In this document: piece by piece, positions 1,269-31,692 of the stretch
Numbering within the stretch: the first letter of the stretch is position 1
Layout of the letters: each line of letters starts with the position of its first letter
Virus record (IMG/VR): IMGVR_UViG_3300027784_000002
Location: 1-41,206 of that record
Strand: one strand, 5' to 3'
From: a virus
Length of the DNA: 41,206 nucleotides
Notes under the pieces: model-generated
What the model saw: only the letters and a program-made list of their open reading frames with translations
What the model was told of the DNA's origin: nothing
Database searches by the model: none
Translations under genes and position numbers: made by a program

Positions 1269-1500
1269 GGGGGCTAAAACTGTTTTTTTCTTAAAGGAAT
1301 TCCCTCTACAATAGAAGACGTATTTTGTCAACAATTGTTACACCTTAAAAGAGCGCAAAGAGAGGAAAGATTATAAGAAACAGCAGAATAAAAACGACAA
1401 TAAACCAGTAATACTTCTCTAAAAAAGCCATAGTTTTCTTCAAAAAAGTGCACAAAATAGCCATTTTAGGACACTTTTCGGTTAGGAATTAGCGATAAAT

Positions 1501-1884
1501 TTACTCAACGGAGATGTAATCCCGCGCGTTTTTAAGGAGACCTTGAAGCACCTTTTTACTACATTTTAGACAAAGGAATTTTCCGGTTGCATAACCACGA
1601 TAATTCTCAATGTAAACCCCTCTACCCTCCCCCTTTTCTATCCTTTTTCCACACTTCTGGCAATTACTTTTTGACGATGGTGCGACCTCAAAGTATTCAA
1701 TCATAAATTTTGTTAAATAAGTTGACACTCCTCCCTCTATAAAGTTAATTTCCTCGTCAGTTAGATCTATGTTATGTTCTTCGGCATAAATGTCTTTAAT
1801 AATGTCTCGTGCCTCTTCCGCGCTATCTGATATTATAGCAATATCGGAGATAATTTTTACTTCAAATTGATATTCTTTTTTCAT
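1501..1884 (-). CDS. Hypothetical protein with C-terminal CxxC...CxxC zinc module (zf-PARP-like spacing)
   Basis: ORF track. Contains SKSNCQKCGKRIEKGEGRG...FLCLKC. Last gene of the leftward arm. Confidence 0.6.
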   Translation of the reverse strand: MKKEYQFEVKIISDIAIISDSAEEARDIIKDIYAEEHNIDLTDEEINFIEGGVSTYLTKFMIEYFEVAPSSKSNCQKCGKRIEKGEGRGVYIENYRGYATGKFLCLKCSKKVLQGLLKNARDYISVE

Positions 1885-1895
1885 AGTTTAATAAC

Positions 1896-2147
1896 TTAAA
1901 ATGTTTTGTCTTCCTCCTCAACCCCATTTTTTAATCCCTTAATTATCTTCTCAAAAAACTCAATCACCTCTTTATTCTCCTCTTCATTTTCTCCGATAGG
2001 ATAACCCTCAATGCTATCCTTAATCATATCCATAATACCGTCCTCTCCAAGCCACTCAACTGCAAAATCAACAAACTCTTTCGTACTCAAATCTTCTCTC
2101 ACTATCTCTATCAACTCCTCTTTTAATTTGTCTATTTTATTTTCCAT
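1896..2147 (-). CDS. Highly acidic small protein (83 aa)
   Basis: ORF track. Very D/E-rich. Tightly packed in the leftward operon. Confidence 0.6.
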   Translation of the reverse strand: MENKIDKLKEELIEIVREDLSTKEFVDFAVEWLGEDGIMDMIKDSIEGYPIGENEEENKEVIEFFEKIIKGLKNGVEEEDKTF

Positions 2148-2150
2148 AAT

Positions 2151-2312
2151 TTAATAATTTAATTTAATATAAGAGACCAAACCATCTAACTCTTTTGCTA
2201 TATCTTCGCTTAATTCTTCGTGTACAACCTCCTTAAACTCTTTGTTTTTGTATTGTTCATTAAGATGTTTTCTCAACCACCATAAATGAGTAATTATTGT
2301 TTTATCGTTCAT
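2151..2312 (-). CDS. Hypothetical small protein (53 aa; below the ORF-track cutoff)
   Basis: Hand translation of the minus strand gives MNDKTIITHLWWLRKHLNEQYKNKEFKEVVHEELSEDIAKELDGLVSYIKLNY. It fills the gap between neighbours. A variant of the conserved leader motif lies upstream (2335..2350). Confidence 0.45.
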   Translation of the reverse strand: MNDKTIITHLWWLRKHLNEQYKNKEFKEVVHEELSEDIAKELDGLVSYIKLNY

Positions 2313-2334
2313 AACTTAATTACTTAATTAATAA

Positions 2335-2637
2335 TTACGACTTTATAATTCTAAAACAAGTATTTCTGTCTTTTAATTTTAGCTTTAAATACTTGTTGAA
2401 AAAATCTCTTTGCGTTAGGTTCATAAAGACAAAGCTATTTTCATTTTTTCCAAAGCTATCTTTTAAATATAATCTTTTCATATAGTCATCTTTATTCCAT
2501 TTCGGTAAAAACACCTCCGCTTGTAGAATGTCTTTTAATTTGTCTAGTGTTTCCCTTGTTATGTTTATTGTTTGCCTATAACAAGTTCCGTCTTTGTCCC
2601 ATTGTCTTTGATAATTGATAGCAAACTCTTTTTTCAT
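2335..2637 (-). CDS. Hypothetical protein (100 aa)
   Basis: ORF track. The conserved ATAAAGGTCGG leader motif (2658..2676) lies upstream of its ATG. Confidence 0.6.
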   Translation of the reverse strand: MKKEFAINYQRQWDKDGTCYRQTINITRETLDKLKDILQAEVFLPKWNKDDYMKRLYLKDSFGKNENSFVFMNLTQRDFFNKYLKLKLKDRNTCFRIIKS

Positions 2638-2727
2638 AATTTTAATAACTTAATTTATAATCCGACCTTTATAATCCTCTCATTACCACCCACTCCCTCC
2701 CTTTAAGGAATGGGCAGTATCAAAGGA

Positions 2728-3366
2728 CTATACTCTCTTTTCTAGCGGAACGTTGTTCCGGATATATGCTTTTACTTGCTTTATTTTCTTTTCTGTTTTC
2801 TCTTTTATATCACGATCCACCGCACTCTGTGCCTCCTCAATCATATCCTTAAACATATCGTCTCCTACAAACCCTCCACAACTATCAATGACTTCTCCGT
2901 CTTTCTCAACAACGTAAGCGTGTATATTATTAGCAAGAATATCATTCCACTCCTCTACCAACCTCCTAGCAATATCCTTCGCCTTGTCTCTCGTCAATCC
3001 CTTTCTCCTCTTTACAAACACTACTCCCAATTGGGAGACGTCCCAACCCCTATCCGGATAATTACCCTCATAAGAGAGAGATAAATTTATCATTCCGTGA
3101 ATGTATGCCTCTAACCCAAAACAGTGGTATTCTTTCTCAATCTCTTTTCCTCTCTCCTCATCCTCAGTATCCCAGTTATCTCCTCCCATAATATACGCGC
3201 AAACCTCTCTCTCAAACCCCTCTCTCTCAACTGAAAACTCTCTATGAAAACCCACCAGAAAGAGATCCTCATTCTCCTCCTCCTCCGGTGTAAAAGGATA
3301 ATCATAATCTTGGTAGATGTTTATAGAGTACGAACGATATTTTTTTGTCTCAATTATATCTTCCAT
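2728..3366 (-). CDS. Hypothetical early protein (212 aa), acidic N-terminus, AYVVEKDGEVIDSCGGFVGDD motif
   Basis: ORF track. Largest ORF of the early arm. The motif recalls an uncharacterised phage/plasmid family, but no family can be named from memory. Confidence 0.65.
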   Translation of the reverse strand: MEDIIETKKYRSYSINIYQDYDYPFTPEEEENEDLFLVGFHREFSVEREGFEREVCAYIMGGDNWDTEDEERGKEIEKEYHCFGLEAYIHGMINLSLSYEGNYPDRGWDVSQLGVVFVKRRKGLTRDKAKDIARRLVEEWNDILANNIHAYVVEKDGEVIDSCGGFVGDDMFKDMIEEAQSAVDRDIKEKTEKKIKQVKAYIRNNVPLEKRV

Positions 3367-3400
3367 AATTTACGAACTTTAATAATTTATAATACAACCT

Positions 3401-3808
3401 TTATCTTGTCTCAATCTCCTCCTCCAACTCATGGCCTTCTTTACTGTGCGCCCAGTCAAAAGGAACAGAGTAAACCTTTACCTTCTCCGGATAAACGCAA
3501 TAAAGATACTCAATATCTCCGTGAAAGTCCTTACAGATACCAAAACCTAGAACCTCAAAACCCTCACTTCTCCCTCCCCTGTATTCCTGCAAACTCCTAT
3601 CCGTCTCATTTGCAAAATACTGCAACGTCCTTGCGGATAAATACTCAACATCATACCCCCTTGCCAAAAGAAACCTTTGCACAAAAGGAATAAGAAGAGG
3701 CAAAACACCGTCCGGATAACCGTCCGAATGTTTATAGATCAGTGCCTCAAACTCCTCAAAACTTTTCTCCTCATTCTCATAAAAAGCAATGTTACAACGT
3801 GTAGACAT
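3401..3808 (-). CDS. Hypothetical early protein (135 aa), IYKHSDGYPDG motif
   Basis: ORF track. First gene downstream of the promoter at 3856..3884, with the leader motif at 3831..3845. Confidence 0.65.
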   Translation of the reverse strand: MSTRCNIAFYENEEKSFEEFEALIYKHSDGYPDGVLPLLIPFVQRFLLARGYDVEYLSARTLQYFANETDRSLQEYRGGRSEGFEVLGFGICKDFHGDIEYLYCVYPEKVKVYSVPFDWAHSKEGHELEEEIETR

Positions 3809-3855
3809 AATAAATGATAATTAAATGAATAATACGACCTTTAATAACTACCCCA

Positions 3856-3884
3856 ATTATAAGCGATAACAATATAAATGTCAA
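3856..3884 (-). promoter_or_regulatory. Sigma70-type early promoter (leftward)
   Basis: The minus strand reads aatcccTTGACA-17 nt-TATAAT, followed by the AAAGGTCGT leader and an ATG at 3808. Confidence 0.65.
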
Positions 3885-3950
3885 GGGATTATGAAGTGAA
3901 AGGAGTAAGAGATATCCGGTAATTCTCTCATAACTTTCTCATTATCACCA

Positions 3951-4078
3951 CAGAGAAAGAAACAAAAAGAAACACATAAGAGAAAGGGAAAGGATAAAGG
4001 GAAAAAAAAGGAAGGAGAATAGGGGAAAAGAAGGGAAAAGAAAGGAAAATGAAGGGAAATAAAGGAGGGAAATGAGCA
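3951..4078. repeat. Polypurine (A/G) tract with about 10-nt phased GGGAAA units
   Basis: The plus strand is almost all purine. Positions 4021..4070 read aggggaaaag aagggaaaag aaaggaaaat gaagggaaat aaaggaggga. Confidence 0.85.
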
Positions 4079-4226
4079 GAAAAAAATACAGCGCGAAGCA
4101 ATTTTCTCTCAATCCGGCCTTTATAATAGTATTCTTACGCTTAAAATAAAAAGAAAAAACCTTTTTTAGAAGTAGATTTGTTCCTAAAAAGTGCGATTTG
4201 CCACGTAGAGAGAGACAAAACGATAA

Positions 4227-4250
4227 CCTTGTGGAAAACCTTGTGGAAAA
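4227..4250. repeat. Exact tandem 12-mer x2 (ccttgtggaaaa), each containing a DnaA-box-like TGTGGAAAA
   Basis: Read directly. TGTGGAAAA differs at one position from TGTGGATAA, the complement of TTATCCACA. Confidence 0.8.
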
Positions 4251-4312
4251 CTCTCATTCTCTGTTAAAAACCAAAAGACGCCCAGAGCATTCCGGACGCC
4301 TTTTTTCTTCTC

Positions 4313-4531
4313 TTATAGGTACAAAATCGGATCCTCATCTCCGGCCAACTCCATTGCCATATCAACCCTTCCGGCATCAATCTGTTCATACATGTCCGCG
4401 CTTAATCTTCTGCGTGCTTCTTCTCTGCATTTAGGACTATCGCAATAGCCGTACATTGCATTCGTTCCGTAATAGTTTTTGCCGTGAGTTTCCCCCTCCT
4501 TTTCACAAATATCACAATCATAGTAATACAT
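4313..4531 (-). CDS. Cys-rich small protein (72 aa)
   Basis: ORF track 4313..4576, trimmed to the internal ATG (MYYYDCDICEKEG...). The conserved leader motif (4551..4568) lies 25 nt upstream of that ATG and directly follows the upstream stop. Confidence 0.55.
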   Translation of the reverse strand: MYYYDCDICEKEGETHGKNYYGTNAMYGYCDSPKCREEARRRLSADMYEQIDAGRVDMAMELAGDEDPILYL

Positions 4532-4572
4532 AAAAACGAACTTTAATTTTTTAATACGACCTTTTTTATTCC

Positions 4573-4890
4573 TCACAAAAATTTTCTTCTGTATTCTTCG
4601 TATATATTATTAGCCTCCTGTATCCAACTATCAAGGTTTGCCAGTGCTATCTCTGCTTCTGTATCTTCCCTCTCTGCGTCCCTTTCCAGAAAGTCTCTGT
4701 CTTCTTTTGCTTCCAGTATTCTATCCGGCATATCTACCTCAAAACTTGTATATTCTCCAAAATCGTGAGCGTTTTCTTTTTCCCAAACTCTTCCTCCAAT
4801 TTTCCCGAACTCCTCTTGTAAATAAAGAAGTGCTTCCTCTTGTTTTTTTATGGGAGTATCAAAAGTATCCCAAGATCCAATTTTGTTCAT
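4573..4890 (-). CDS. Acidic hypothetical protein (105 aa)
   Basis: ORF track. First gene after the promoter at 4940..4968. Confidence 0.6.
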   Translation of the reverse strand: MNKIGSWDTFDTPIKKQEEALLYLQEEFGKIGGRVWEKENAHDFGEYTSFEVDMPDRILEAKEDRDFLERDAEREDTEAEIALANLDSWIQEANNIYEEYRRKFL

Positions 4891-4939
4891 AATTTTAATA
4901 ACTTAATGCTTTAATAATACGACCTTTTTATATATTATA

Positions 4940-4968
4940 AGTATAAGCGATTGTCTTCTACTTGTCAA
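4940..4968 (-). promoter_or_regulatory. Sigma70-type early promoter (leftward)
   Basis: The minus strand reads aatcccTTGACA-17 nt-TATACT, followed by AAAAAGGTCGTATTA and 29 nt to the ATG at 4890. Confidence 0.65.
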
Positions 4969-4972
4969 GGGA

Positions 4973-5170
4973 TTATAGTCTCCGGAGTGCTTCTTTTATT
5001 CTCTTTATGTTTGTGTCTTTCGTTGTCTGAATAACTATGTTCCGGCCGTCTTTGTATGGCCTGAATTTCAATAGTCCTTTTCTGTATAACCTGCCAATAT
5101 ATTTTATCCGGCCGGCGTTGCTTTCTACAAAAATTCCGTCTCTTGTTGTATGGTTTTTTATGTTCAGCAT
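4973..5170 (-). CDS. Basic small protein (65 aa; alternative start at 5248 gives 91 aa)
   Basis: ORF track 4973..5248. Region 5171..5226 is homologous to the intergenic spacer at 5517..5578. GAGGAG lies 4 nt before the ATG at 5170, which favours the internal start. Confidence 0.5.
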   Translation of the reverse strand: MLNIKNHTTRDGIFVESNAGRIKYIGRLYRKGLLKFRPYKDGRNIVIQTTKDTNIKRIKEALRRL

Positions 5171-5222
5171 TTTACTCCTCTTATCTCCACTCTCTACCGT
5201 AGTAAAGAATGGAGTAAAGGGA

Positions 5223-5441
5223 CTAACTATGATCTCTACCCTCTCCACAATACACGCAATATCCTCCGGGGTTCATAGAGTGCTTACATTCCTCCTCTTC
5301 CTTTTCTGTTTTATCTCCTTCGTGCTCTTCTATCTTCTCTCTTATGTCTCTCACTAATTCCTCTATATCATCTCCATTCAACGGCTCATCAAAGCTTGCT
5401 CTTCTGTTTATGATAATCTGCTCTAATGTTTTCTGTATCAT
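5223..5441 (-). CDS. Acidic small protein (72 aa) with C-terminal CxxC
   Basis: ORF track. First gene after the promoter at 5488..5516. Confidence 0.6.
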   Translation of the reverse strand: MIQKTLEQIIINRRASFDEPLNGDDIEELVRDIREKIEEHEGDKTEKEEEECKHSMNPGGYCVYCGEGRDHS

Positions 5442-14512: not shown

Positions 14513-17500
14513 ATGGCAGAACGCAACGAACCACAAGATAATAGCGAACAAAAATGGATACCTGATGCATTTGATTATTCAAATGTTGAGGATATTCTAG
14601 ATGGAACCTATCACTTGGAACTCACAGAAGAAAGTGCTGGTGTTTATAATACTTCAGGATACAGAACATCATCTCCAATATCTTTAGACAGCATTAAAAA
14701 AGTAAAGTCTAGTAATATAAAATGGACAAGCACAGAGCCAACAGATACAGACATCAAAATCTACACTGCTGTAAGTGATAGTGATACGGTAGAGCCGAGT
14801 AAATTAGGAACACACAGAATAAAGATAACTTCTGACAATACAAAAGTAGCTGCGAGTTATCCTTACGCAATGATATTTGATTTAGGAGAGCATTTATCAG
14901 CTGCTGGATATAACGACTTCTGGACAACAGTAAAATCAGATGGTGGAGATATTAGGGTTACTGAATCAGACGGCACAGAACTTCCAAGAGGAGTAAGAGA
15001 AGTAGATACTACTAATAAAAAGGGATTAGTATATTTCAGAGCAGACGATATTTCTACAAGTGCAGATACAGAATACTATATTTACTTTGGTTCAGGACAA
15101 GACGATTATGCAGACGACCACGCATTAGGAATGGAGAATGTGTTTAGTTCTGACCAAGAGTTTTATTTTACAATGGCAGACCTAACCACCTCAACGGTTA
15201 AAGATGAAACAAGTAACAACAGAAATGGAACAAAAACGTCTGCTAACAATCCTTCTCAAACATTAGATGGTATTGTAGGAAAACACCAAGAGTGGGATTA
15301 CAGCCTGATTAGTTTTTCAGGCCCCTCATTAGTCCAAGCTGATTTTACAATGTCTACTTGGTTTAAGTGGACAAGTGATGTAGTGAAGTCGTCTGAAAAC
15401 CAACCTAGCTTCTTATCACATGGTTCGGGTTCTTATACGTCTGCCTTATACTTAGATTTATTGTCAGACCGCAGACGTATAATATCAAGAATTACAAATG
15501 GTGTAACGCTTTCTTATTATGCATCGCCGTATGATGATGATACTTGGCACCATTTTGTTATGAAAAGAGATGGTAACTCTATGGTTACTTATTTAGATGG
15601 TGTTGAAGTTGATTCAGAAACAGACGAGTCTTTAGGGACTTCTTCCGCTTCGGGTTCTTGGTATATGGGCGGTCTGTCTTGGGCTTCCACTCACAGGCAA
15701 TTAGAGGGGCAATTTCAAGACGAAACAGGTGCTTTGAGTACAGCTTTAACAGGCGATGAGATTTTAACCATCTACAACAACCAATCCTCTAACTCTACTT
15801 TCTGGACAGCAGGTAGTATAGAAACAACAACAGAAGGATACCAAGAAGAAGTAAATGACACATCAATAGACAGCATATCAACAGACCAAGACCTTACAGG
15901 AAAATACCTATGGGTAAGACAAGAACTAAGCACAACTGATACAGCGGAAACTCCACGATTAAGTACGCTGGAGTATAGTGTGGAGGACGCAGCGCCAACA
16001 GTAACAACAGATAAAGATAGATACGACCCTGGAGAAACAGTCAATCTGATTACAGAAATAACAAAAGACTATAACACTGATGACTTAACCGTTACCCTAA
16101 CCGACCCAGATGCAGTTGATAGAATATCAAGTGAAAGACCACAAGAGTACAGAGATGACTTTATAAGCGAAACAAGCACTGGCGATGATTGGGATTTAGG
16201 AACTGACTATAGTGTAAATGAGACAAACGAAAGATTGGAGTTTGGATACTCTCCGGCCTATCATCAAACCGCTCTCATAAAATCAACAGTAGTAAGCGAT
16301 AAAGCGGAACTATCAGCCGCCTTAGATTTTTATGTAGCAGAAGCTCCAGAGCATACCACAAGGATTATAATGCGTTATCAGGATAGCAATAACTATGTAG
16401 CATTTTACGCTTCTCACACTTATTCAGTTGTCGGAATTGAAGAAATACACGAGGGAACAAGACATTTTCACGAAACATCACGACCATTTTCAACTGGAGG
16501 ATGGAATGAGTTTAGAGGATCAATTGATGGCAATACCGCTAAATTGGTGTTTGATGGAAGTGAACTTTTAGAATATGAGCTTCAATATATAATGACAGCA
16601 GGAAGAGTGGGAATAATGACTGATGCAAGTGAAACCTATTACAGATTCTTTACAGTAGGATATCCCGGAAGCACAATCGAAGATATTGGAGATATGTGGA
16701 GGATAACAATGCCCTTTGACATTCCTGACGATAAGGATGAAGGAGGAGTATGGACAATGGAATCTGAAATTAGCGGAGTAGGAAGTGATACGCATACATT
16801 CAATGTAGTTGGAGATGCTCCTATTGTTACCAACCTTTCTACAACTCCCGAAGAAGGGGAGGCAGGAAAGGATATAGATATAGAATGTGAGGTTCTTCAC
16901 GATACTCCAACAGATATTGATGAGACAAAACTCACTCTTTGGGACCCGACAGGTGCCGAAGTTCTTCATCAAGTTGTAACTCACGAAACTGAAACCACGA
17001 ATAGCAGAACTTATAAGTATACTTATAGCATTCCCGAAGAATTAGACAGGGAAGGAACTTGGGAATATAAGTGGGAAAGTATCGATACTGGTGCAGACCA
17101 AGATGAAAAGAGTGGAACTTTTGAAGTAAGCGTACCTGCTCCGGATGTGTCTCCAATAGAGTTTGAAAGAGCTGGCTCACCAATAAAGATAGCTGACTTC
17201 GGAGATGTAGTTAAAATCAAATCAACCATAACCCATCCTGAAAATAAGGATATGACGGTTACTCTCAAGATTTGGGATCCAGAACAGAACGAGATAGTGA
17301 ATGAAACTCTTACAAGTGAAACTGATAATTACGAATATAACTATACTTTCTCAAAGAATGATTGGGATAGAGGGGATTATGAGGTACAGATTTCAGCCGA
17401 TGATTTAACTTATAATGTAATAAGGCTTAAACATATTTTCCTTAGATGGATGGATGCCGAGTTTGAATACAGGAGAGACTTTTACACAGTAGACCAATTT

Positions 17501-19963
17501 AATGAGCCCAGAGAAGAACTGGTAGGAGTTACTCTGAACATAGACGAAGAAAATATAGACGGAAACCGTCTCAGAATATACGACGAGGAAGGAGTCCAAG
17601 TAGACTATGAAGAAGCAGAGAGAACTACCGAAGGCGGAACAACTACAGTAAAGATAAGACTCTTAGCTCAAGTAGGAACTAAATATACTGCTTATTATAA
17701 CAACGAAGGAAGTGAATATACTCCAGTAACGGTTGAGAAAGAAGCGATGGCGGTTAAAGAAAAGTCAATGATTCCGATCACATCTGATGACTTCTTTACT
17801 GACCCTGATGAAAGTGAAACGGGAGTACACGGTTCTTCAACAGCAATAGGAACGCTCAATGGAGCAAGAAAGAGAGTAATTGCTGGTAAAGCTAAAGAAG
17901 AAGTAGAGGGAGGTTTTCACAAGTGGCATTCGACCATTGTAGTTATTGATGACAATGATGAGAAAGAATTCCTCGAAAGAACACCTTATGGAGACCAGAG
18001 TGGCTTTTACGGAGTTGAGATAGTAGATATAAATGGAGATGGAAATAATGAGATAGTAGCAGTCGGATATACATTTGAAACTGGAAATGATTATGCTTCA
18101 GGATTTATAGCAATCTATTCTTACGACGGAACTCTTACAGAGCTTAATACTCTTACATGGAACCCCGGAACAGTTAGATCCGAGTTTTTTGCAATGAATA
18201 CTGCGAATATAACAGAGCACAGCGGTCTTGATTTAATAGTTGGTGGAATGAATGGAGAGGGAAGTGATGCTGCCAGCTCAGAGGTGAGGATTTACAATGT
18301 AGATTCAAACAACAACATAAACTTCATAGACAGCGCTGATACTGGATTAGTGGAAGAAATTAACAATAATGACAGAGATAGAATCTTCTCTCTTGGAGTT
18401 GGAGATTTTGGAACAGGAGACAAAATTGTATCCACAGGTACTACTAAATCGGGGCTATACAACGAGCATGACCACTGGATTCTATATGCAACTATCATTG
18501 TTTATGACTACGACTCAGGAACAAGCACACTAAGTAGAGAATTCCAGCACTATTATTACGAAAGTGAAGACCTTACGGAGATATTCGGAATGGATATTGC
18601 TGACGTTACAGGAGACGGAAACGATAACATAATCACAGGTGGTAATTATTACGAGTATGACAACTTATCGGATATTGCAGAGGTAAGACTCTGGGAGTAC
18701 GACACAGGAACTCCAGCAATGACTCTCTTAGATAGAGTTGAATATCCGGCACAGGGGCACTCAACCGTTCTCTCAATACTTTATAGAGACTCCAATAACG
18801 ACTTTGGACATGAAATAGTTGGAGCAGGATTTTTCCACGACGGTGAATATGATAAAGGATTTAATGTAATTCTTGTTTATGATGGAACTAATCTTAATAC
18901 TATTTTCCAAGATACATGGGATCATGACGGAAGACCTATAAGAGATGGTGAAACGGATGCAATGGAGATATACCCAACACAGCTTGGATTGAATGAGATA
19001 TTTACTACAGGTAGAATCGGAATGACAAGCCCTATATGCTCATATTATCGAATACTTCAGGTTGGAGGAGTAAATCTGGATGTAGATAACGAAGAAACCG
19101 ACTTCAAGCCATTAGAGGATATAACCTATAGACTGCAGACAGGGGAGACTCTGGACAGAGTTGATATTACCGTCTCAAATACTGCAGGAACTGAATATAG
19201 TTATTACACATTCTCACGATATGATACTTATCCAGAAAACATCTATCTTCAATGGGTAGAGGAAGTAACCGAGGCCGGTGTTACCGTTAACTACGAAGTT
19301 GATGTGGGCAAGGAAGGATTAGTAAAGATTCTTTACGAGATAATTGATGGACAACGCCAATTTAAGGAAAAGCTGACTGCTGATGTTAATGGAAAGGTTC
19401 AATTCTCAACCACTGATCATAGTGAGAACGAATTAGAGCTTACTGACCCGGTAACAACCAAAGAAGCCACTAATAGAGAAATTGACAAAGCAACTCTAAA
19501 CGGAGAGACTGAAGAAGAGGGAGATGCCTACTTCCACTATAAAAAACCGGGTGATCTAGATTGGACAGAAACCCCTAAATCAACTGAAACAGGAGTGTTC
19601 TCTAAAGAGATTACGGGACTTGAAATGGGACAAGATTACGATTTTAAGGCAATGCTTGATGTGGGAACAGACACCTACGAAGGAGATGTGAAAACATTCA
19701 ACACGAAATATGGTAAAATTGCCGGGAAAGTTATAGATAGTGATGGGAATGTTCAAGACGCTATAGTTGAGATAACCAATCAGAATAAGGAGACTTATGT
19801 TGCAAGCATCATCACAGATGCAAATGGAGAGTTTGAGTATTCTTTCGATGACGAGAATCTCGCAAACGATAAATATCACGTGAAGGTAAGATACACTGAT
19901 ACTGAGGGATATAAATGGAACGCGCCCAGTTTGTGGGATATTGATCCGACTAATTTAGAATAA
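14513..19963 (+). CDS. Giant multidomain tail fibre/adhesin (1816 aa): DUF2341-like x2, LamG/concanavalin-like x2, Ig-like repeats, FG-GAP/VCBS beta-propeller, FN3-like, carboxypeptidase-regulatory-like
   Basis: - DUF2341-like: GGDIRVTESDGTELP...YYIYFGS.
- LamG: FTMSTWFKW...WHHFVMKRDGNSMVTYLDGVEVDS.
- FG-GAP: VDINGDGNNEIV, GVGDFGTGDKIV and DIADVTGDGNDNII.
- CarboxypepD_reg-like: GKIAGKVIDSDGNVQDAIVEITN...TDANGEFEYSF. Confidence 0.8.
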   Translation: MAERNEPQDNSEQKWIPDAFDYSNVEDILDGTYHLELTEESAGVYNTSGYRTSSPISLDSIKKVKSSNIKWTSTEPTDTDIKIYTAVSDSDTVEPSKLGTHRIKITSDNTKVAASYPYAMIFDLGEHLSAAGYNDFWTTVKSDGGDIRVTESDGTELPRGVREVDTTNKKGLVYFRADDISTSADTEYYIYFGSGQDDYADDHALGMENVFSSDQEFYFTMADLTTSTVKDETSNNRNGTKTSANNPSQTLDGIVGKHQEWDYSLISFSGPSLVQADFTMSTWFKWTSDVVKSSENQPSFLSHGSGSYTSALYLDLLSDRRRIISRITNGVTLSYYASPYDDDTWHHFVMKRDGNSMVTYLDGVEVDSETDESLGTSSASGSWYMGGLSWASTHRQLEGQFQDETGALSTALTGDEILTIYNNQSSNSTFWTAGSIETTTEGYQEEVNDTSIDSISTDQDLTGKYLWVRQELSTTDTAETPRLSTLEYSVEDAAPTVTTDKDRYDPGETVNLITEITKDYNTDDLTVTLTDPDAVDRISSERPQEYRDDFISETSTGDDWDLGTDYSVNETNERLEFGYSPAYHQTALIKSTVVSDKAELSAALDFYVAEAPEHTTRIIMRYQDSNNYVAFYASHTYSVVGIEEIHEGTRHFHETSRPFSTGGWNEFRGSIDGNTAKLVFDGSELLEYELQYIMTAGRVGIMTDASETYYRFFTVGYPGSTIEDIGDMWRITMPFDIPDDKDEGGVWTMESEISGVGSDTHTFNVVGDAPIVTNLSTTPEEGEAGKDIDIECEVLHDTPTDIDETKLTLWDPTGAEVLHQVVTHETETTNSRTYKYTYSIPEELDREGTWEYKWESIDTGADQDEKSGTFEVSVPAPDVSPIEFERAGSPIKIADFGDVVKIKSTITHPENKDMTVTLKIWDPEQNEIVNETLTSETDNYEYNYTFSKNDWDRGDYEVQISADDLTYNVIRLKHIFLRWMDAEFEYRRDFYTVDQFNEPREELVGVTLNIDEENIDGNRLRIYDEEGVQVDYEEAERTTEGGTTTVKIRLLAQVGTKYTAYYNNEGSEYTPVTVEKEAMAVKEKSMIPITSDDFFTDPDESETGVHGSSTAIGTLNGARKRVIAGKAKEEVEGGFHKWHSTIVVIDDNDEKEFLERTPYGDQSGFYGVEIVDINGDGNNEIVAVGYTFETGNDYASGFIAIYSYDGTLTELNTLTWNPGTVRSEFFAMNTANITEHSGLDLIVGGMNGEGSDAASSEVRIYNVDSNNNINFIDSADTGLVEEINNNDRDRIFSLGVGDFGTGDKIVSTGTTKSGLYNEHDHWILYATIIVYDYDSGTSTLSREFQHYYYESEDLTEIFGMDIADVTGDGNDNIITGGNYYEYDNLSDIAEVRLWEYDTGTPAMTLLDRVEYPAQGHSTVLSILYRDSNNDFGHEIVGAGFFHDGEYDKGFNVILVYDGTNLNTIFQDTWDHDGRPIRDGETDAMEIYPTQLGLNEIFTTGRIGMTSPICSYYRILQVGGVNLDVDNEETDFKPLEDITYRLQTGETLDRVDITVSNTAGTEYSYYTFSRYDTYPENIYLQWVEEVTEAGVTVNYEVDVGKEGLVKILYEIIDGQRQFKEKLTADVNGKVQFSTTDHSENELELTDPVTTKEATNREIDKATLNGETEEEGDAYFHYKKPGDLDWTETPKSTETGVFSKEITGLEMGQDYDFKAMLDVGTDTYEGDVKTFNTKYGKIAGKVIDSDGNVQDAIVEITNQNKETYVASIITDANGEFEYSFDDENLANDKYHVKVRYTDTEGYKWNAPSLWDIDPTNLE

Positions 19964-23842: not shown

Positions 23843-25294
23843 ATGGCTGTACCAGCAATACTATATGGGGCAGGTGTTAAAGCAGCTAAAGCTGCTCCTT
23901 GGCTAGGTCACACTATTGCGGGACTTTGGGGAGTCGGTCAGCATAAAAGTCAGGAAAGAGAAAAAGAGGCGCAGCATGAAAAGTGGATAGCAGAAGGTAT
24001 GCAGGCTCAGAAGTATGCTAGAGATGCTAGAGACGCATTTCATAGTCTTCTTGACTCAGCTAGAGCTAAAACATATGATGCTCAACACGAAGAACATACA
24101 TTTGCCGGAGGGAGAACTCCGAGAGACGATGAGGAACTACAAAAAGGGCCCGATCTTTCCTATTTACAAGAAGCACTAGATGGTTATCAAGTAGAGGGAG
24201 TAGATCTTCCGGATGTCCCCGATGTAAGAGAAGATATTGATTGGATGAGAGATAAAATAGGAGAAACTCCGGAAGTTCCTGATTTAAGTGGGGAGATGGA
24301 AAGATTAAGGAGCAAATATCAGGTAGAACCTATAGAGCAACAAATAGCAGAGTATGATAGGGAGATAGTGGAGGCTCAACAAAGATGGGAGGAGCAATTT
24401 GCGCGTGAAGAAGGAAGACCTGTTACCTTAGAGCAGATGAGGGGCAGGACTGGAGAAATGTCTAGGGAAATGGAAAGAGAGATAGGATTTTTAGAGCAAA
24501 GAAAAGAAGTTGCTGTTAGTGAGTTGAATCAGAAATACGAGACTATAAATATGATGATGGATCTTGAGGCTCAACAATATGAAATGGCAAGGCAAGATTA
24601 TGAAATGAGATTTAATAAAGCATTCAATCTTACAGGTATGCTTATTGATACTAAGATGCAGGATTTTCAAAATGCTCTTAATTTAGCTAGAACAGAAACA
24701 GAGTTAGAGTCCGTAAGACAACAAACCGCTCTTGCGAATTGGCAAGTAGCTACTGATGCAATGAGCAATGCAATTCAAAGAGGTGCTATGCAGTCTATTA
24801 ACAACTTGTCTTCTGAGCAGAAAGCTAAATTAGCAAAACAAGAAGTTCAGGCAGGATTACCAGCCGGATTTACTGAAACTTTGTTAAATAATATGCGTCC
24901 TCAAGAAGAGCACATACAAAGCATAGTCTCTCAGGATCAAACAGAAATCTCTTCTATATTAAGAAACCCCACTGATGGGACTTTCCGTGTAGAAAAAAAC
25001 CCTACAGGATTATCTGCAGCACGGACAGAAACAGAATTACTTGAGACGGCCAGCGATCTGGACTTGAATACAAAAAGTCAGCAATTAACTCATTTTAGAA
25101 CTGATTGGGTTGAGGGAATGAAAGATGAGTTGAATAAAATGCCAGAACAAGAAAGGGTTGAGTTAATACAGAGATTTTTAGGTGAACTGGATGCGTATTA
25201 TGATAGAGTTGACACACAAGACATTCTTCGGGAAATGAGGCGCACAGGAATAGATGTTCCCATGTCTGTAACACAATTTTATTCCTCACATTAA
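23843..25294 (+). CDS. Putative internal virion/ejection protein (483 aa)
   Basis: Hydrophobic Gly/Ala N-terminus (AVPAILYGAGVKAAKAAPWLGHTIAGLWGVG) followed by a long E/Q/R coiled coil. Precedes the giant protein. The call is positional. Confidence 0.5.
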   Translation: MAVPAILYGAGVKAAKAAPWLGHTIAGLWGVGQHKSQEREKEAQHEKWIAEGMQAQKYARDARDAFHSLLDSARAKTYDAQHEEHTFAGGRTPRDDEELQKGPDLSYLQEALDGYQVEGVDLPDVPDVREDIDWMRDKIGETPEVPDLSGEMERLRSKYQVEPIEQQIAEYDREIVEAQQRWEEQFAREEGRPVTLEQMRGRTGEMSREMEREIGFLEQRKEVAVSELNQKYETINMMMDLEAQQYEMARQDYEMRFNKAFNLTGMLIDTKMQDFQNALNLARTETELESVRQQTALANWQVATDAMSNAIQRGAMQSINNLSSEQKAKLAKQEVQAGLPAGFTETLLNNMRPQEEHIQSIVSQDQTEISSILRNPTDGTFRVEKNPTGLSAARTETELLETASDLDLNTKSQQLTHFRTDWVEGMKDELNKMPEQERVELIQRFLGELDAYYDRVDTQDILREMRRTGIDVPMSVTQFYSSH

Positions 25295-25302
25295 CAGATA
25301 AT

Positions 25303-28300
25303 ATGAGTCTTTTAGATAGACACAAAAAAGAACTTCAGGAAATCAGAAGAGATCCTAGTATTCCTGATGAAACAGGACAAAAGTATCGTGAAGATACTGG
25401 TGTTGGAACTCAAATAAGATCTCCGGCAGAAACTGGAGGTTCTTCTAATTTACTAAAGAGACATCAACAGATGATCCAACAAGATAGTGATCTCCATGAG
25501 GAGGTTAGAAAAGCTACAATTAAAGAAACAAAAGGTATTCCTGATAGAGTGAGAGGTTTTATGGCTGATATTTATGATATGGGAGAAAGATTATTTACTG
25601 AAGAAAAACCAAAAGAAACAGTGGTTGAATTGGACAGGGTGGGAAGAAGGGAAAAGATTGACGTAGAACCCAAAAAAGGTGTATGGGAAACCTTGAGAGA
25701 TTCTTCAAAAAGAACATATCACAATACAGCAGCAGAGATTTTATCTACACGAGCAGTTACCAGAGCTTTCTCGGATAGACTGCCTTTTTTCTCTTTTTCA
25801 GAGGAAGGGACTTATGATTTATTGGATAGAGCGGAGGAAAGGAGAGAGATAGCTAGAGAGTTTCAAAAAGATGTGGAGAAGATAGAGGATATAGATACAT
25901 TTAGTGACTTTGGAAGGTGGGTTGGTTCTACTTCGATAGAAATGGTTCCAATAGTTGGAAGTATAATGATTGGTGGATATATTGGAGGTGCTGCTGGTGG
26001 AGTTGCGGGATCCGCTATTGGTAAATCTAAAATAGGCGCTAGAGTCGCAACTTCAGGAGTAGGAAAGTTGGCCGCAAAAACTCCTAAATTAGGAGGTCTT
26101 ACCTCTCAACAACTTGGAACTATTTCTGGATCTACTATGGGCACATTTTCAGTAGGCTATGCCTCTTATGCAGGAACTATATTTGAGGAAGCTGTTAGAC
26201 AAGGGGCTGAGATAGATGATGCCACATCTGCGGCACTAAGATATGGAGCTCCGGCTGCAGCAGTTAGTATAGTCTTTCCTGCCATGATAGCATCTTATAC
26301 TTTAGGAGCATTTGGTAAAGCAGCAATGAAAAGTAAAATAAGAGTTGCAGCAGAAGGTATTATGGTTGGTGCTCCATCAGAGGGTGTGGCTGAGGGTATA
26401 GCAGAGATATTTACTATAATGGGAGAACAAGTTGCTCAAGGGAAAGATATTTCCGCCTCTGAGATACTTAGAAGTGAAGAGGGGTGGAGCAGGGTTAAAA
26501 ACGCCATGGCTGGAGGTGCTTTGATGGGATTCGGTTTTGGTGCATTGGGTGGTGCTGCAAGATCAAAGAAACAAATAACTCCTAACGATATAATAAGAGC
26601 GACTGATGATTTTTTGGATGCAACAGATCAAGCCATGGAGCTAAATAGAACCACAAGAAGAGGTGAGGTGGAAGATAATCTTCTTGGTAGGTTAAGAGAA
26701 ATAGAGGATCCTTCTGCAGAACAACAGCAATTGATTAACTTCCTTCAGGAAAGAGTAGATGATGCAAGATTGGATGTGAATAAATATGATTCTTTGATGA
26801 TTTATGATGAGCAAATGATGGAGGTTCTTCGTCAAGATGAGGGTTATGTTAGAGAAAGATTGAAAGAATTAGCTCTAAAGAAAGAACCAACTCTGGTAGA
26901 AGCTGCAGAACTTTCTGCTATAATGGTAAACAAACCTAAATTAGCTCATGATGTTGTTACAAAACTAAGACCAGAAGATGTACCAACAAGTCCTGATTAT
27001 TTAGCGGATAGAATAGTTTATGAAATTGCTCAGCCGGGACAATGGACCAATTTGAATGATATACATGAAGCAGTAGAGGGGGAAGGATATAGTCGTACTG
27101 ATGTAGATAAAGCTGTAGATATTTTAGAAAGAAAGAATTTAATTGATAGAGATCAGAGATACGCACCTGCGGATAGTATAAAAACGAAACCTGAAGAATT
27201 AGGATTGCCTCCTGATTCAGACAATATACCTGATGCTATAGATGAGATATATAAAGGAAAAAGAAAAATAAAGGTTCCTACGACCGGATTTGAAACAGAG
27301 GTAAGAGAAGCTATGCGCAAAGGTGATTATATGCGTATATTTTCTAAGGATAAGGGTACTGCAATAGATGAGATTGCCGATGAGTTAGGAATAACACCAA
27401 GTCAGTTGGTTGATGAATTGATTGAAAGAAGTAAGGGCAATAAGAGACTTATTGTTCCAGACAAGGGACCATTAGATACACGACCAAGTGAAATACAAGA
27501 GATGGGAGATGAAATGCCCAGGCATCAATTAGGGCCTCCGGAAGATATTGGAACAAGTGACTTTGATGTTAGAAAAAAACAATCCATAAAAAAGAGGTTT
27601 CCTCACATACATGAATTAAGAAAAAGGAATGTAGATTGGAATAAGTTAGATAAAACGCAAAAAGAAGCTGTTCGTATTTGGTATAATCAAAAAGACAGCT
27701 TAAAGGAGAGAATAGGTGCGGTTGAGAGTAGTTTTGGAAAAGAGGCCAGAGATTCTGTAGAGAGCTACATAAATCAAGGCAAAACAGGTGAACAGTTTGC
27801 TTACGATCTATTTAGAAAAAAAGAAGATGTGGTAGCGCCTAAGGATATTCCCAATGCTTTAGAAAAAGTTAAAACAAATGTAGAATTTTATCAATCAATG
27901 GGAACTAGTTATGAGGGAGATATTCAACCAGAAAATGCAGCTCTCAGAGATTTGAAGGAATTAGCAGAAGATAAAAAAGTTAAACAACGGACTCAAGAGC
28001 AAGTTAAGCAAATTACTGAAAAAGATGGGATGATTACCCTTTATAGGGTAGGGGAAGTTACTGATGTTGATCGTCTAGTTAGTGCTACTTATGATAAAAA
28101 ATTTGCCGATAAGTTTGCTGAGGCAGTGCTATCCCAAAGTAAAACAAAGCCAAAACTTACTGAGTTTAGGGTAAGCCCAGATGAGGTGAAGATATTTATA
28201 GGTGGAGCAGAAAGTGAGGTTTTAGTTCATAGTTTAATTCATAAGAGGGCGGTTGAGGGAGAAGAAGCAAACATCAATGTACAATTAGGAAAACTACACT

Positions 28301-31300
28301 TTAGACACAAAGAAGAAGCAAAGGCGTTTTATAATATGATAGAGGGAGACCCTGAACTACCTTCTTTTCTTAGAGAGCCTGAGTTTCAAATAGATGAAAC
28401 CAGTCAAGATCCAGTAATAGATCCACCAGTAACAAAAGAAAGTGAAGTGGGAATGTTGTCTCGTCAATGGACAACGGATCTTAATATAAAGACAAATAAA
28501 AAGAGATGGTTTACTGTTTTAAGGGATATAGCATTTGACTTGGGAGTAAGTGAGATTTCCTATAAGCCTCACAAAAAAGATTTGCTGGGAACTTTTTGGT
28601 GGGATAAATATAACAAACTTAATTATGGTATAACTCTTAAAGAGACTTGGAGCTTAGCAACGCTAGGACACGAAGTGGGCCATGTTTTTGATTATGTGGT
28701 TATACAAAATCTTGGAGACTTAAAAAAGCCCAGAAGTATGAAGCAAAGGATCTCAAAGAGATATGATAAGATGCGCGAGAATGTGAATAATATGCCTTGG
28801 ACTGATAAGAAAAAGCAGGAGGTTATAGATAGAATAGAGAGCTTTAAGGATGGGGAATTTATAAAAGAGATAGAAAATCTAATTAAATACACAAAAAACT
28901 GGGATAGAAGAACCGAAAGAGAAGAGATGTTTGCTAATTGGTTCTTAGCTTACTTAAATGATTACGATACAACCGTTGCCATAGCTCCCAAATTTACCGA
29001 GGCGATGGAAATGACTTATATGAATGAGCTCCAAAGTGTAAGGAGTAAGTATAAGATTCCAGCTGAAGATACTGAAATACTCAACCTTCCTCCTGCAAAA
29101 AAAGCAAGGAAAGGTATTGATAATTATTTAAGAGGATTACAGCAAGCTAATAAGCTAATGAAACACGATGATACTGTTGAATGGATACAGAATTACAGGA
29201 ATTCTCTCAAAAAACTTCCGGATAAATACTTGAATATATTAGGTATGCCTTACGGAGAATCAATGAGAAATCCGCATTTTAGAGATATGTATAAACCCGT
29301 TCAGGATTATGGAGTAAACGAAGATCACAAAACAAAAGTAGAGTGGCTCGAAAAATCAGGTATACGTAAGATAAGAAAGCTACCGGAAGCCTCAAAAAGA
29401 AAACTTGCTTATGTTTTGTATCAAGGAACTGACATGGAAGAAGTTTATACTGACCAGCAACTTGAAACAGTGTTTGGAATGGATAGTCAGGAGAGGGCTT
29501 ACTACAAGCGAGTGAGAGAAGTTTTGGATGAGGTGAGAGATAAAATGATAGAGACAAGGAAATTTGAGACGGGTTATTATGATATGACAGCGCAGAAAAA
29601 AAAGGATATTGATCGACATATTCAAAATCAAATCAAAGAGCTTACAGGATATTTTCCTAAAACAAGAAGTGGAAAGTGGATTGTTTTTGCAGGAAAGGAT
29701 TATAATGCAAAGACCGGAACTTATGAAACAATTGCTTATGATCACTTTCACTACGCAAAACAACCTCTTATTGCACAAGATGCCCCAAATGCTGCAGATT
29801 TTGCGCAACACTTAAAGGATATGAAAGCGTATGACAGGATAGTTGTAAAAGAGTGGAAAGACTTGCCAAAAGAAATGCAGAGATCAATGACAAAGCAAGC
29901 ATCTTGGTGGGAGCTTCAAAAGATAATAGATAATTCTGGTGTTGATAGAACTGATCCTGAGATACAAAAAATTGTCAAACAGATTGAAAAGAAAACAACG
30001 GAGGGTTGGAAAAAAAGAATTGCAAAAAGAAAAAATGTTCCCGGATTGGATTATACTTTTGAGAACTTTGAACACTCTTTACTTGATATTATAGATGATG
30101 TTTCAAGGGCTCATGCGAGAGCAAAAGCTAAATATCACTGTGAGAAAGCACGTGAGAAGATGTATCAAGCAGAGAAAGATGGAAAAGTTTCCTCAGAGGC
30201 AGTAGCTAGGGCTGAAAAATGGTTTGAGCACTACTTCAATCAAGCAGGGAATGATAGTTGGGTTACCCTAAGAAAAGGTATTTATTGGTGGTATCTCGGA
30301 TGGAAAGTATCATACTTTTTCCAAAACGCTCTACAACCTGTAATGACAACATTAGGAGAGGTTGGTAAGCATGCCAGCATCAGTCAAACCCCCAAACATT
30401 GGGGCAGGGGATACGGATTGTCTATAGATTATTTCTTATCAAGGAAAGCAGGAAACGACTTTATTAAAATAGCTCCTAAGTCCATACAGAATTTCTTACA
30501 AGGAAAAAGGAGGCAGGGAGATCCCCTATTTTATGAGCTTATGGATAGAGCTGTAATGGAGAGAGCGATTTCTGGACAATTTCAAGAACAGATGCTTGGT
30601 GTTAGAAACCCAAAAATGGAAGCACTTCAAAATGTTATAGGAGCTTTTGGTGTAGCTACAGAAACCATAAATAGAAGTCATGCAATGGCAACAGCTTATG
30701 ACATAGCAGTTAATCAGTACAAAATGAAAGATAAGAATAAGATATATGAGTTTATGAAAGAGATGAATTACAATACTCAATTCCCTTATGGTAAGCACAA
30801 TATACCTTTTGGATTAACTAAGGTTGGAGAGATGAAGGGCCCCCTAAGAACTATGTTTGTTTTCAGGTCTTTCTCTCTGAATTACTTAGATTATTTTATG
30901 AGAATGATGACCACCGGAACTAGTGCTCAGAAGTTTTATGGAATTTCCTCAATGATAACAATAGGTGGAATAAGAGGACTTCCTTTTTATGCGATATTAA
31001 ATGCTTTAATTGGTTGGATATGGAAAAGAGATGTTACCGAGAATATCGATGCTTTATTTGATGAAGAAGATGAATGGATAGGAGACTTCCTCATAGGTGG
31101 TGCCTTCTCTTGGGCTAATATGTCTACCTCTCAATTGCTTGGAGTTGGAGATATTGTTTCTCCAACCTATGATCCCATGGGGCAGGCCCTTGGTGCAGGA
31201 TACGGTTTAGCGGGAGATATTAAGTATGGTATGGATCTTTATAAAGAAGGTGATTTGGAAAGAGCGTATGAAAGATTCTCGCCAATAGCACTTAGAAACA

Positions 31301-31692
31301 TACAAACAGCCTTCAGGTGGCAAGAAGAGGGAATTGATTTTGGTAGAGATGTGGTTCATGAACCGGAAGGGTGGGATCTTTATATGAAGGCGCTCAGTTT
31401 TACACCTTATGATGTCTCTCGTCAGTATGATAAAAGGAATATGGCTGACAGATATAGAGATAGTAAAACACGGCTTGGTAAAAGATATACGAATGCTATA
31501 AAAAGGGGTGAAAGCACAGAGTCTATTATTGAATCAATAGAAAAACATAATAGAATAGTTGAAGATGAGTTATATAAGATGTATTACCATTCAAAAATCC
31601 CAATTTCGGTTGACTCTTGGGAAAAAATAGAAAATTCAATCTTAATTGATTTTGACGATATATTTAGGTGGGAAGATAGAGCTTATGAATAA
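25303..31692 (+). CDS. Giant virion protein (2129 aa) with Gly-zipper membrane region, ART-like module, HExxH zincin module and hydrophobic C-terminal region (polyvalent/ejection protein candidate)
   Basis: Uninterrupted 6.4-kb ORF.
- Gly-zipper region: VPIVGSIMIGGYIGGAAGGVAGSAIG.
- ART-like: LYR...SAT...ESEVLV.
- Zincin: LATLGHEVGHVFDY.
- C-terminal hydrophobic segments: FYGISSMITIGGIRGLPFYAILNALIGWIW. Confidence 0.8.
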   Translation: MSLLDRHKKELQEIRRDPSIPDETGQKYREDTGVGTQIRSPAETGGSSNLLKRHQQMIQQDSDLHEEVRKATIKETKGIPDRVRGFMADIYDMGERLFTEEKPKETVVELDRVGRREKIDVEPKKGVWETLRDSSKRTYHNTAAEILSTRAVTRAFSDRLPFFSFSEEGTYDLLDRAEERREIAREFQKDVEKIEDIDTFSDFGRWVGSTSIEMVPIVGSIMIGGYIGGAAGGVAGSAIGKSKIGARVATSGVGKLAAKTPKLGGLTSQQLGTISGSTMGTFSVGYASYAGTIFEEAVRQGAEIDDATSAALRYGAPAAAVSIVFPAMIASYTLGAFGKAAMKSKIRVAAEGIMVGAPSEGVAEGIAEIFTIMGEQVAQGKDISASEILRSEEGWSRVKNAMAGGALMGFGFGALGGAARSKKQITPNDIIRATDDFLDATDQAMELNRTTRRGEVEDNLLGRLREIEDPSAEQQQLINFLQERVDDARLDVNKYDSLMIYDEQMMEVLRQDEGYVRERLKELALKKEPTLVEAAELSAIMVNKPKLAHDVVTKLRPEDVPTSPDYLADRIVYEIAQPGQWTNLNDIHEAVEGEGYSRTDVDKAVDILERKNLIDRDQRYAPADSIKTKPEELGLPPDSDNIPDAIDEIYKGKRKIKVPTTGFETEVREAMRKGDYMRIFSKDKGTAIDEIADELGITPSQLVDELIERSKGNKRLIVPDKGPLDTRPSEIQEMGDEMPRHQLGPPEDIGTSDFDVRKKQSIKKRFPHIHELRKRNVDWNKLDKTQKEAVRIWYNQKDSLKERIGAVESSFGKEARDSVESYINQGKTGEQFAYDLFRKKEDVVAPKDIPNALEKVKTNVEFYQSMGTSYEGDIQPENAALRDLKELAEDKKVKQRTQEQVKQITEKDGMITLYRVGEVTDVDRLVSATYDKKFADKFAEAVLSQSKTKPKLTEFRVSPDEVKIFIGGAESEVLVHSLIHKRAVEGEEANINVQLGKLHFRHKEEAKAFYNMIEGDPELPSFLREPEFQIDETSQDPVIDPPVTKESEVGMLSRQWTTDLNIKTNKKRWFTVLRDIAFDLGVSEISYKPHKKDLLGTFWWDKYNKLNYGITLKETWSLATLGHEVGHVFDYVVIQNLGDLKKPRSMKQRISKRYDKMRENVNNMPWTDKKKQEVIDRIESFKDGEFIKEIENLIKYTKNWDRRTEREEMFANWFLAYLNDYDTTVAIAPKFTEAMEMTYMNELQSVRSKYKIPAEDTEILNLPPAKKARKGIDNYLRGLQQANKLMKHDDTVEWIQNYRNSLKKLPDKYLNILGMPYGESMRNPHFRDMYKPVQDYGVNEDHKTKVEWLEKSGIRKIRKLPEASKRKLAYVLYQGTDMEEVYTDQQLETVFGMDSQERAYYKRVREVLDEVRDKMIETRKFETGYYDMTAQKKKDIDRHIQNQIKELTGYFPKTRSGKWIVFAGKDYNAKTGTYETIAYDHFHYAKQPLIAQDAPNAADFAQHLKDMKAYDRIVVKEWKDLPKEMQRSMTKQASWWELQKIIDNSGVDRTDPEIQKIVKQIEKKTTEGWKKRIAKRKNVPGLDYTFENFEHSLLDIIDDVSRAHARAKAKYHCEKAREKMYQAEKDGKVSSEAVARAEKWFEHYFNQAGNDSWVTLRKGIYWWYLGWKVSYFFQNALQPVMTTLGEVGKHASISQTPKHWGRGYGLSIDYFLSRKAGNDFIKIAPKSIQNFLQGKRRQGDPLFYELMDRAVMERAISGQFQEQMLGVRNPKMEALQNVIGAFGVATETINRSHAMATAYDIAVNQYKMKDKNKIYEFMKEMNYNTQFPYGKHNIPFGLTKVGEMKGPLRTMFVFRSFSLNYLDYFMRMMTTGTSAQKFYGISSMITIGGIRGLPFYAILNALIGWIWKRDVTENIDALFDEEDEWIGDFLIGGAFSWANMSTSQLLGVGDIVSPTYDPMGQALGAGYGLAGDIKYGMDLYKEGDLERAYERFSPIALRNIQTAFRWQEEGIDFGRDVVHEPEGWDLYMKALSFTPYDVSRQYDKRNMADRYRDSKTRLGKRYTNAIKRGESTESIIESIEKHNRIVEDELYKMYYHSKIPISVDSWEKIENSILIDFDDIFRWEDRAYE

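Follow-up and report, generated by a model that had tools for sequence, protein, structure and literature searches.

The stretch of DNA analysed here, referred to as the window, is the whole of positions 1 to 41,206 of the IMG/VR virus record IMGVR_UViG_3300027784_000002 (41,206 nucleotides) and encodes, among other proteins, a giant protein whose residues (aa) ~846-981 probably constitute a compact ADP-ribosyltransferase (ART) domain of the R-S-E clade, closest to the Mod proteins of phage T4 and then to T4 Alt, and carried by a phage polyvalent protein. The probability given to this assignment as a whole is about 0.6. The proposal goes back to a reading of the letters without database searches (the sequence-only reading), which had described an R-S-E ART module embedded in the giant protein. 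Conserved residues, their predicted placement and the similarity to Mod proteins speak for such a module, while curated profiles, structure searches, motif spacing and the residues beyond the E-x-E motif do not.

The plus strand at 28021-28260 translates to KDGMITLYRVGEVTDVDRLVSATYDKKFADKFAE...IFIGGAESEVLVHS, in frame within the open reading frame (ORF) of the giant protein at 25303..31692, and the translation, residue numbers and nucleotide positions of the sequence-only reading proved to be exact. The three motifs on which it was built are likewise present where it had placed them in this ORF, namely R915, S927-A-T and E970-S-E972. A triple motif of this kind in a single sequence is no evidence by itself, since the loose pattern [FYW]R..S.[ST]..E.E[VILMF] appeared in 216 of 1000 shuffles of the giant protein (22%). 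In fact, the real protein matches the pattern again at aa 2004 (nucleotide ~31312); the idea that this further match is meaningful was rejected, since it is at chance level and situated in a conserved C-terminal module with no ART-like flanking context.

It is conservation in homologues that lifts the observation above chance. An exhaustive phmmer (HMMER) search with aa 861-1300 as the query, carried out against 1.84 billion cluster representatives, returned 66 hits, of which about 57 lie over aa ~850-985, in proteins of 220-3723 aa, while 8 cover a downstream HExxH region instead. The 57 homologous domains (aa 845-990), each standing for a cluster at 50% identity and sharing 24-61% identity with the query, were collected in an alignment, A1. 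Only five of its columns are invariant: R915, S927, E970, E972 and L974. Conservation of the motif residues had been set beforehand as a test on which the module could fail, and these residues turned out to occupy four of the five invariant columns. The near-invariant columns include Y863, L881, G917 (Y-R-x-G), L925, F938 and G967, with F938, in the helix after the serine, and G967, before E-x-E, each conserved in at least 90% of the sequences. Moreover, an aromatic residue (Y, W or F) precedes R915 in each of the 57 sequences, T, S or A occupies position 929, and the spacing from R to S is 11-13 residues in 57 of the 59 family members. As regards the extent of the module, the motifs do lie within 28021-28260, but the conserved unit is larger than the residues ~907-985 that had been proposed, spanning aa ~846-981 and including a three-helix N-terminal part (Table 1).

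With A1 as input, AlphaFold2 produced a confident model with a predicted local distance difference test (pLDDT) of 90.5 and a predicted template modelling score (pTM) of 0.85; the single-sequence prediction was uninformative (pLDDT 38.5). In the model, three N-terminal helices (A1 positions 7-22, 35-43 and 47-60) are followed by strand 1, strand 2, a helix, strand 3, strand 4, a G-G-x turn and strand 5. Strand 1 ends at Y-R, S927 lies in strand 2, after which the helix begins, and strand 5 starts at E972. Since the catalytic triad of ARTs is defined by residues on strands 1, 2 and 5 (PMC5512222), this placement of the motifs fits an R-S-E ART. As modelled, the domain would show three features of the clade: strand 1 bears an aromatic-Arg pair, strand 2 carries S-x-[ST] and leads into a helix, and E-x-E opens strand 5.

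The nearest detectable relatives of the domain are the Mod proteins. The T4 modA, modB and alt sequences were taken from the annotated T4 record and, as a search with T4 ModA gave only copies 97-99% identical to it, diverse Mod proteins were collected from annotated phage records, eight further annotated phages contributing to a Mod profile of 14 sequences. The hhalign comparison of A1 with ModA alone gave a probability of 75% and an expectation value (E) of 2.6e-5. The 34 columns aligned have the Ser motif and its helix at their centre, the core of the match being the S927 motif region, VVSASYDKNIALHFA in ModA. Against the 14-sequence profile the score was 32.8 (E 1.5e-4), about 9 standard deviations (SD) over the null obtained from 150 column-shuffled profiles (11.8±2.3, maximum 20.5), with the reversed profile scoring 9.2. 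Side by side, T4 ModA reads ...PLWRGVP...VVSASYDKNIALHFA...DEQEVMIP, the window protein ITLYRVG...LVSATYDKKFADKFA...AESEVLV and T4 Alt GITLYRS...FVSTS...EMEVILP. Permissive hhalign settings also brought the L-Y-R of the family onto the L-Y-R-G of the Mod proteins, with a ~14-residue insertion in the latter, and the N-terminal helical part onto their helical N-terminal part. Furthermore, when 25 family members were aligned by MAFFT, unsupervised, together with Alt and the 14 Mod proteins, the [YWF]R pair, F938, E-x-E and the next hydrophobic residue fell in columns common to the family, all the Mod proteins and Alt; the Ser column is shared by every one of the 14 Mod proteins, whereas Alt has a Pro at this position.

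In summary of this comparison, the domain and the Mod family (ModA/ModB; phrog_832) are both phage-encoded, have a helical part before strand 1, present the co-linear motifs [YWF]-R-G, V-S-[AF]-[ST]-x-D-x-x-x-A-x-x-F-A and E-x-E plus hydrophobics, and resemble each other at the profile level above the shuffle null. In T4-like myoviruses the Mod proteins are made early and stand alone, with a length of about 190-230 aa, whereas the domain of the window is of a kind that uncultured phages carry within giant late proteins, as a cassette of ~135 aa. With T4 Alt the domain has an identical strand-1 peptide, I-T-L-Y-R, and a strand 5 of the E-x-E-V-[IL]-L-P type in common, but the ART domain of Alt is much larger. 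Several family members read G-x-E-x-E-V-[LM]-[VI]-P, matching the flanks of Mod and Alt. In addition, some members keep an E-V-L-[VL]-P-[RA] turn, like that of C3, Alt and ModA, with no conserved later strands following it.

Table 1. Position in the window of the ART-like domain, its motifs, the other parts of the giant protein and the neighbouring genes.
Feature	Position	Strand	Residues	Remarks
Giant ORF	25303..31692	+	2129 aa	Complete; polyvalent-type multidomain protein in late/structural gene block
Conserved R-S-E ART-like domain	27838..28245	+	846-981	Delimited by phmmer hits, overlap with relative P0003 and AlphaFold2 model
N-terminal three-helix part	27853..28014	+	~851-904	Motifs N-[IV]-x-x-Y and N-A-A-L-R-D-L
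Beta core	28033..28230	+	911-976	AlphaFold2 strands at A1 67-72, 81-85, 108-113, 118-123, 128-132; helix at 88-101
Arg915 in I-T-L-Y-R-x-G	28045..28047	+	915	Predicted strand-1 NAD-binding arginine; invariant
Ser927-Ala-Thr929	28081..28089	+	927-929	S-x-[ST] of strand 2, then helix Y-D-K-x-x-A-x-x-F; S927 invariant
Glu970-Ser-Glu972	28210..28218	+	970-972	E-x-E starting strand 5; G967 before, V-L-V after (to 28227)
HExxH (zincin-like) module	28348..29202	+	~1016-1300	Directly downstream of the ART-like domain
HEVGH	28669-28683	+	1123-1127
E-M-F-A-N-W	28924-28941	+	1208-1213	Conserved as E-[ML]-F-A-x-W, about 85 residues beyond HExxH
N-terminal glycine-rich hydrophobic region	25831-26439		177-379	Hydrophobic segments at aa 217-235 and 316-338
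C-terminal stretch resembling P0002	31189-31407		1963-2035
Terminase	at 6948
Portal	at 8380
Major head protein	at 11457			T7/Page-like
Second giant ORF	14513-19963		1816 aa	Laminin_G_3, DUF2341, MG2-like and CarboxypepD_reg-like domains
MuF-like ORF	23843-25294			Directly upstream of the giant gene; weak phrog_241 match (MuF/SPP1 gp7-type head morphogenesis), E 4.7e-4
SH3_3 protein	at 31967
SLT lysozyme	at 33378

A considerable body of results weighs against the assignment to the R-S-E ARTs. The profile search against Pfam ART families, proposed with the sequence-only reading, came out negative: no ART family was found at E<=10 with the whole protein or aa 807-1086, and none above threshold with the 57 members or the family consensus. 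NCBIfam had no matching ART model either. Likewise, a profile search against PDB sequences found no match, and no HMMER-level match leads from the family to the Mod proteins. The structure search with Foldseek had no match at E<=0.001 in PDB or BFVD, and its 50 best matches in BFVD did not include the T4 Mod and Alt models. The hhalign match to Mod extends over only 34-41 columns at 51-75% probability, R and E-x-E aligning with Mod only under permissive settings or in MAFFT; the comparison with T4 Alt was not significant (E 0.028 over 10 columns), nor was that with T4 ModB alone. The architecture differs as well. The spacing of the motifs, which had been called roughly canonical, is not so, since R and S are separated by 11-13 residues in the family (12 in the window) versus 24-27 in T4 ModA, ModB, Alt and their relatives, and S and E by 37-49 versus 49-76. 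Beyond E-x-E the family is conserved for 5-12 residues; Mod and Alt continue for at least 29 more (29-62 in Mod, absent or unconserved in the family), which in our reading form the last strands of the sandwich, and C3-type enzymes likewise have a segment of 30 or more residues here that the domain lacks. The full core and the usual motif spacing of the clade are, consequently, not found in the domain and, to our knowledge, a five-strand ART would be smaller than any ART characterised so far. Since it fails every curated ART profile and the full-length ART architecture, the domain has not been filed as a member of the Alt/VIP2, Mod or ART-PolyVal families.

Below the thresholds, the matches of individual members are enriched for ART families, with E values of 0.0044 for ADPrib_exo_Tox, 0.018 for Anthrax_toxA and 0.042 for DRAT (two members). 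The first of these is the only contact with the Alt/VIP2/C3-type family (PF03496), made by 1 of the 57 members and far below the gathering score; a single member also touches phrog_832, 'RNA polymerase ADP-ribosylase', at 0.0086. A scan of PDB sequences with the giant protein and aa 807-1086 gave nothing relevant, and a scan of PHROGs with the same queries no relevant match, the relatives of the family in PHROGs being phrog_25265 and phrog_4776, annotated without function. As to the structural superposition of a predicted model, put forward by the sequence-only reading, no match reached a significant level. The best PDB match had an E of 0.6. Among PDB ranks 1-12, only the ADP-ribosylating toxin ParT (6d0h/6d0i) was superposed compactly, with root mean square deviations (rmsd) of 3.7-4.2 over 76-77 columns, E values of about 1 and probabilities of 0.2-0.3. 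MbcT, an ART-like NAD+ phosphorylase, appeared at ranks 20 and 27 with an rmsd of 6-7. In BFVD, the best matches were uncharacterised phage proteins (E 0.002-0.08), together with one annotated ART at E 0.07.

These results bear on two other explanations. It is unlikely, in our estimation, that the domain is no ART at all, but an unrelated small alpha/beta domain, enzymatic or structural, in which R, S and E-x-E mimic the signature and the likeness to ModA is a short convergent motif. The failure to reach significance with any ART profile or structure is what would be expected of such a domain, as are the shortness and moderate probability of the hhalign match, the ease with which the triple motif arises by chance in one sequence, and a spacing and a loss of C-terminal strands unlike those of every ART compared. 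Against it stands the fact that, in 57 diverse sequences, the residues predicted to be catalytic make up four of the five invariant columns, with the order and the predicted strands that an ART requires, and that the flanks too match Mod and Alt, through aromatic-R-x-G, S-x-[ST]-Y-D-K-x-x-A-x-x-F-A and, in several members, the extended E-x-E motif. Moreover, the profile similarity exceeds the shuffle null by a wide distance in SD units, and Foldseek yielded no alternative fold.

The other explanation accepts descent from the R-S-E ARTs and places the doubt on the reaction: instead of a protein arginine ART, it might be an enzyme that depletes NAD+ (a glycohydrolase or phosphorylase), an ART acting on nucleic acids or an 'RNAylating' enzyme like ModB, or else a truncated remnant which binds NAD and whose fold is completed by another part of the giant protein. 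This, too, we hold to be rather improbable. The nearest sequence relatives of the domain, the Mod proteins, include ModB, which transfers NAD-capped RNA (PMC9503650), and the nearest compact structural matches, ParT and MbcT, include an NAD+ phosphorylase. It would also account for a domain with no strands after E-x-E and with a very short G-G-x loop before it, the loop which in C3-type toxins helps to select the protein substrate. Nevertheless, both glutamates of E-x-E are invariant, and in the characterised enzymes of the R-S-E clade an E-x-E with both Glu goes with arginine transfer and not with simple hydrolysis; nor do the data contain any pointer to a nucleic-acid substrate.

Other types of ART were compared with the family. 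The ART-PolyVal domains (PF18760) are, like it, effector cassettes inside giant phage polyvalent proteins, but they are N4-like and have the catalytic signature H-Y-D instead of R-S-ExE. As hhalign against three ART-PolyVal domains remained at noise level (score 14.7, E 0.16) and Pfam gave no PF18760 match, the possibility of a diverged ART-PolyVal was rejected on account of both the different signature and the lack of similarity. The toxins of the RES-domain/ParT type (6d0h, 6fkg) are also small ART-fold domains using NAD, of about 160-180 aa. Unlike the family, RES domains have their conserved residues in the order R-E-S, and ParT-type toxins belong to a toxin-antitoxin setting and not to phage virion proteins. 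With regard to published surveys, only H-Y-D ARTs were reported in polyvalent proteins (PMC5512222), and a later survey described fusions of Alt/VIP2 ARTs with MuF, whereas the Mod-like ARTs in it are solo genes or toxins (PMC9503650).

The family is metagenomic so far. Searches by tblastn with the region, one family member and the family consensus gave no match among GenBank phages (none either with the region alone) or PLSDB plasmids. A word-indexed search of 5.8 billion proteins found nothing for aa 850-1350 (27850-29349) or for A1, a negative which is not to be read as absence, as this kind of search can miss a real family seen by the exhaustive one; A1 has no conserved stretch of 7-10 columns. 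With a degenerate DNA pattern for a 10-residue peptide of the domain, one viral contig matched and was rejected: its reading, ...TLYSGG in high-GC surroundings, does not correspond to the domain. Bacterial genomes, of which more than 120 matched the pattern, were also rejected as carriers of the domain, the gene concerned being that of threonyl-tRNA synthetase (loci L022-L141). The 10-residue peptide is also found in the threonyl-tRNA synthetase of many Bacteroidota, a coincidence that swamps searches with DNA patterns.

The domain appears to be one of several exchangeable parts of the giant protein. The HExxH module that follows it is common to the relatives P0004, P0011, P0023, P0035, P0065 and P0066, and in an alignment of eight sequences the E, G, H and D of HE.GH..D are invariant, with the first His replaced by Thr in one of the eight. 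Pfam gave no match for this module, including none to MPTase, the domain which in polyvalent proteins has a processing role (PMC5512222). By analogy with that domain, the module may be considered a candidate self-processing peptidase.

The nearest full-length relative, P0004, is 37% identical over aa 1016-2127 of the giant protein and bears a genuine Pfam ART-PolyVal domain (aa 540-715) immediately before the part in common, that is, in the slot occupied in the window by the aa 846-981 domain; two unrelated ART types have thus apparently been swapped at one position. P0003, in turn, shares only aa 846-981 with the giant protein, at 64% identity, in a locus with the same local gene order as in the window, and has an ART-PolyVal elsewhere in its sequence. 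The domain therefore behaves as a mobile module, in the manner of the cassettes described for polyvalent effectors. It co-occurs with ART-PolyVal in P0003 and P0019, and other family members bear LPD38, a DNA methylase, DnaJ or ParB_N. A further relative, P0002, is a 2140-aa protein with Pfam LPD39 which has in common with the giant protein only the N-terminal region and the C-terminal stretch listed in Table 1. These two parts may represent a conserved 'chassis' for packaging or ejection, into which variable effector cassettes are inserted.

Used as a whole, the giant protein matches only itself and P0002 in the word-indexed protein search and no viral contig in the contig search; in public data, the identical protein (P0001) was found on two contigs. 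It has the features by which polyvalent proteins are recognised (Iyer et al. 2017), namely its size, shuffled cassettes, an HExxH module and a location among late genes, and its relatives carry LPD39, LPD38, LPD14, ART-PolyVal, DNA methylase and DnaJ. PHROGs gave for the giant protein only a weak 'virion structural protein' match (E 0.0027, aa 176-256).

According to the annotation of the neighbouring genes, the window holds a podovirus-like structural block, in which the giant ORF is flanked by tail-fibre-like and lysis-type genes. The 1816-aa protein is probably a tail fibre, tail spike or receptor-binding protein. Directly upstream of the giant gene lies the MuF-like ORF, and MuF proteins are known to carry packaged effectors. 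A block of minus-strand ORFs at ~1500-5250 of the window shows a strongly negative GC skew and a GC content of 0.35-0.37, below that of the head and packaging genes at 6-20 kb (0.39-0.42), and is probably a divergently transcribed early or regulatory module.

For the R-S-E ART domain considered the most probable, a mechanism can be proposed whose steps, from NAD+ use and the acceptor residue to packaging, processing and the host target, we infer. R915 on strand 1 and S927 on strand 2 would hold NAD+, and E972, at the start of strand 5, would stabilise the oxocarbenium intermediate. E970, as the first Glu of E-x-E, would favour arginine as the acceptor, a preference also seen in Alt and ModA and in toxins of the cholera, iota and VIP2 types; this specificity is deduced from the E-x-E motif. 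In this scheme, the late operon would encode a phage polyvalent protein of which the domain forms one cassette. The gene order and the literature on polyvalent proteins suggest that the giant protein presumably travels in the virion and enters the cell together with the DNA, Alt being the paradigm of a head-packaged ART injected in this way (PMC5512222). The ART cassette might then be released by the adjacent HExxH peptidase module and could ADP-ribosylate a host protein early in infection.

In a more far-reaching and more tentative interpretation, to which we give somewhat less than an even chance, the domain would represent an undescribed and unusually small family of active R-S-E ARTs, with a ~70-residue five-strand core and a ~55-residue helical cap, a hairpin-like link between strands 1 and 2 and no strands after strand 5 or 6, and would be passed around among uncultured phages as a cassette of their polyvalent virion proteins. 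If true, the lower size limit of the ART catalytic core would move down, and the finding of 2017 that genuine polyvalent proteins contain no R-S-E (Alt/VIP2-type) ARTs would be overturned. Among the protein-modifying cassettes of polyvalent proteins, ARTs are the most frequent, and injected or early-acting phage ARTs such as Alt, ModA and ModB of T4 reprogramme host transcription and translation. An R-S-E cassette, should it be confirmed as such, would widen the known effector repertoire of uncultured phages, serve, with its length of about 135 aa, as a compact candidate from which the minimal ART core could be worked out, and supply a domain model missing from Pfam and NCBIfam, for a family whose relatives in PHROGs are described only as of 'unknown function'.

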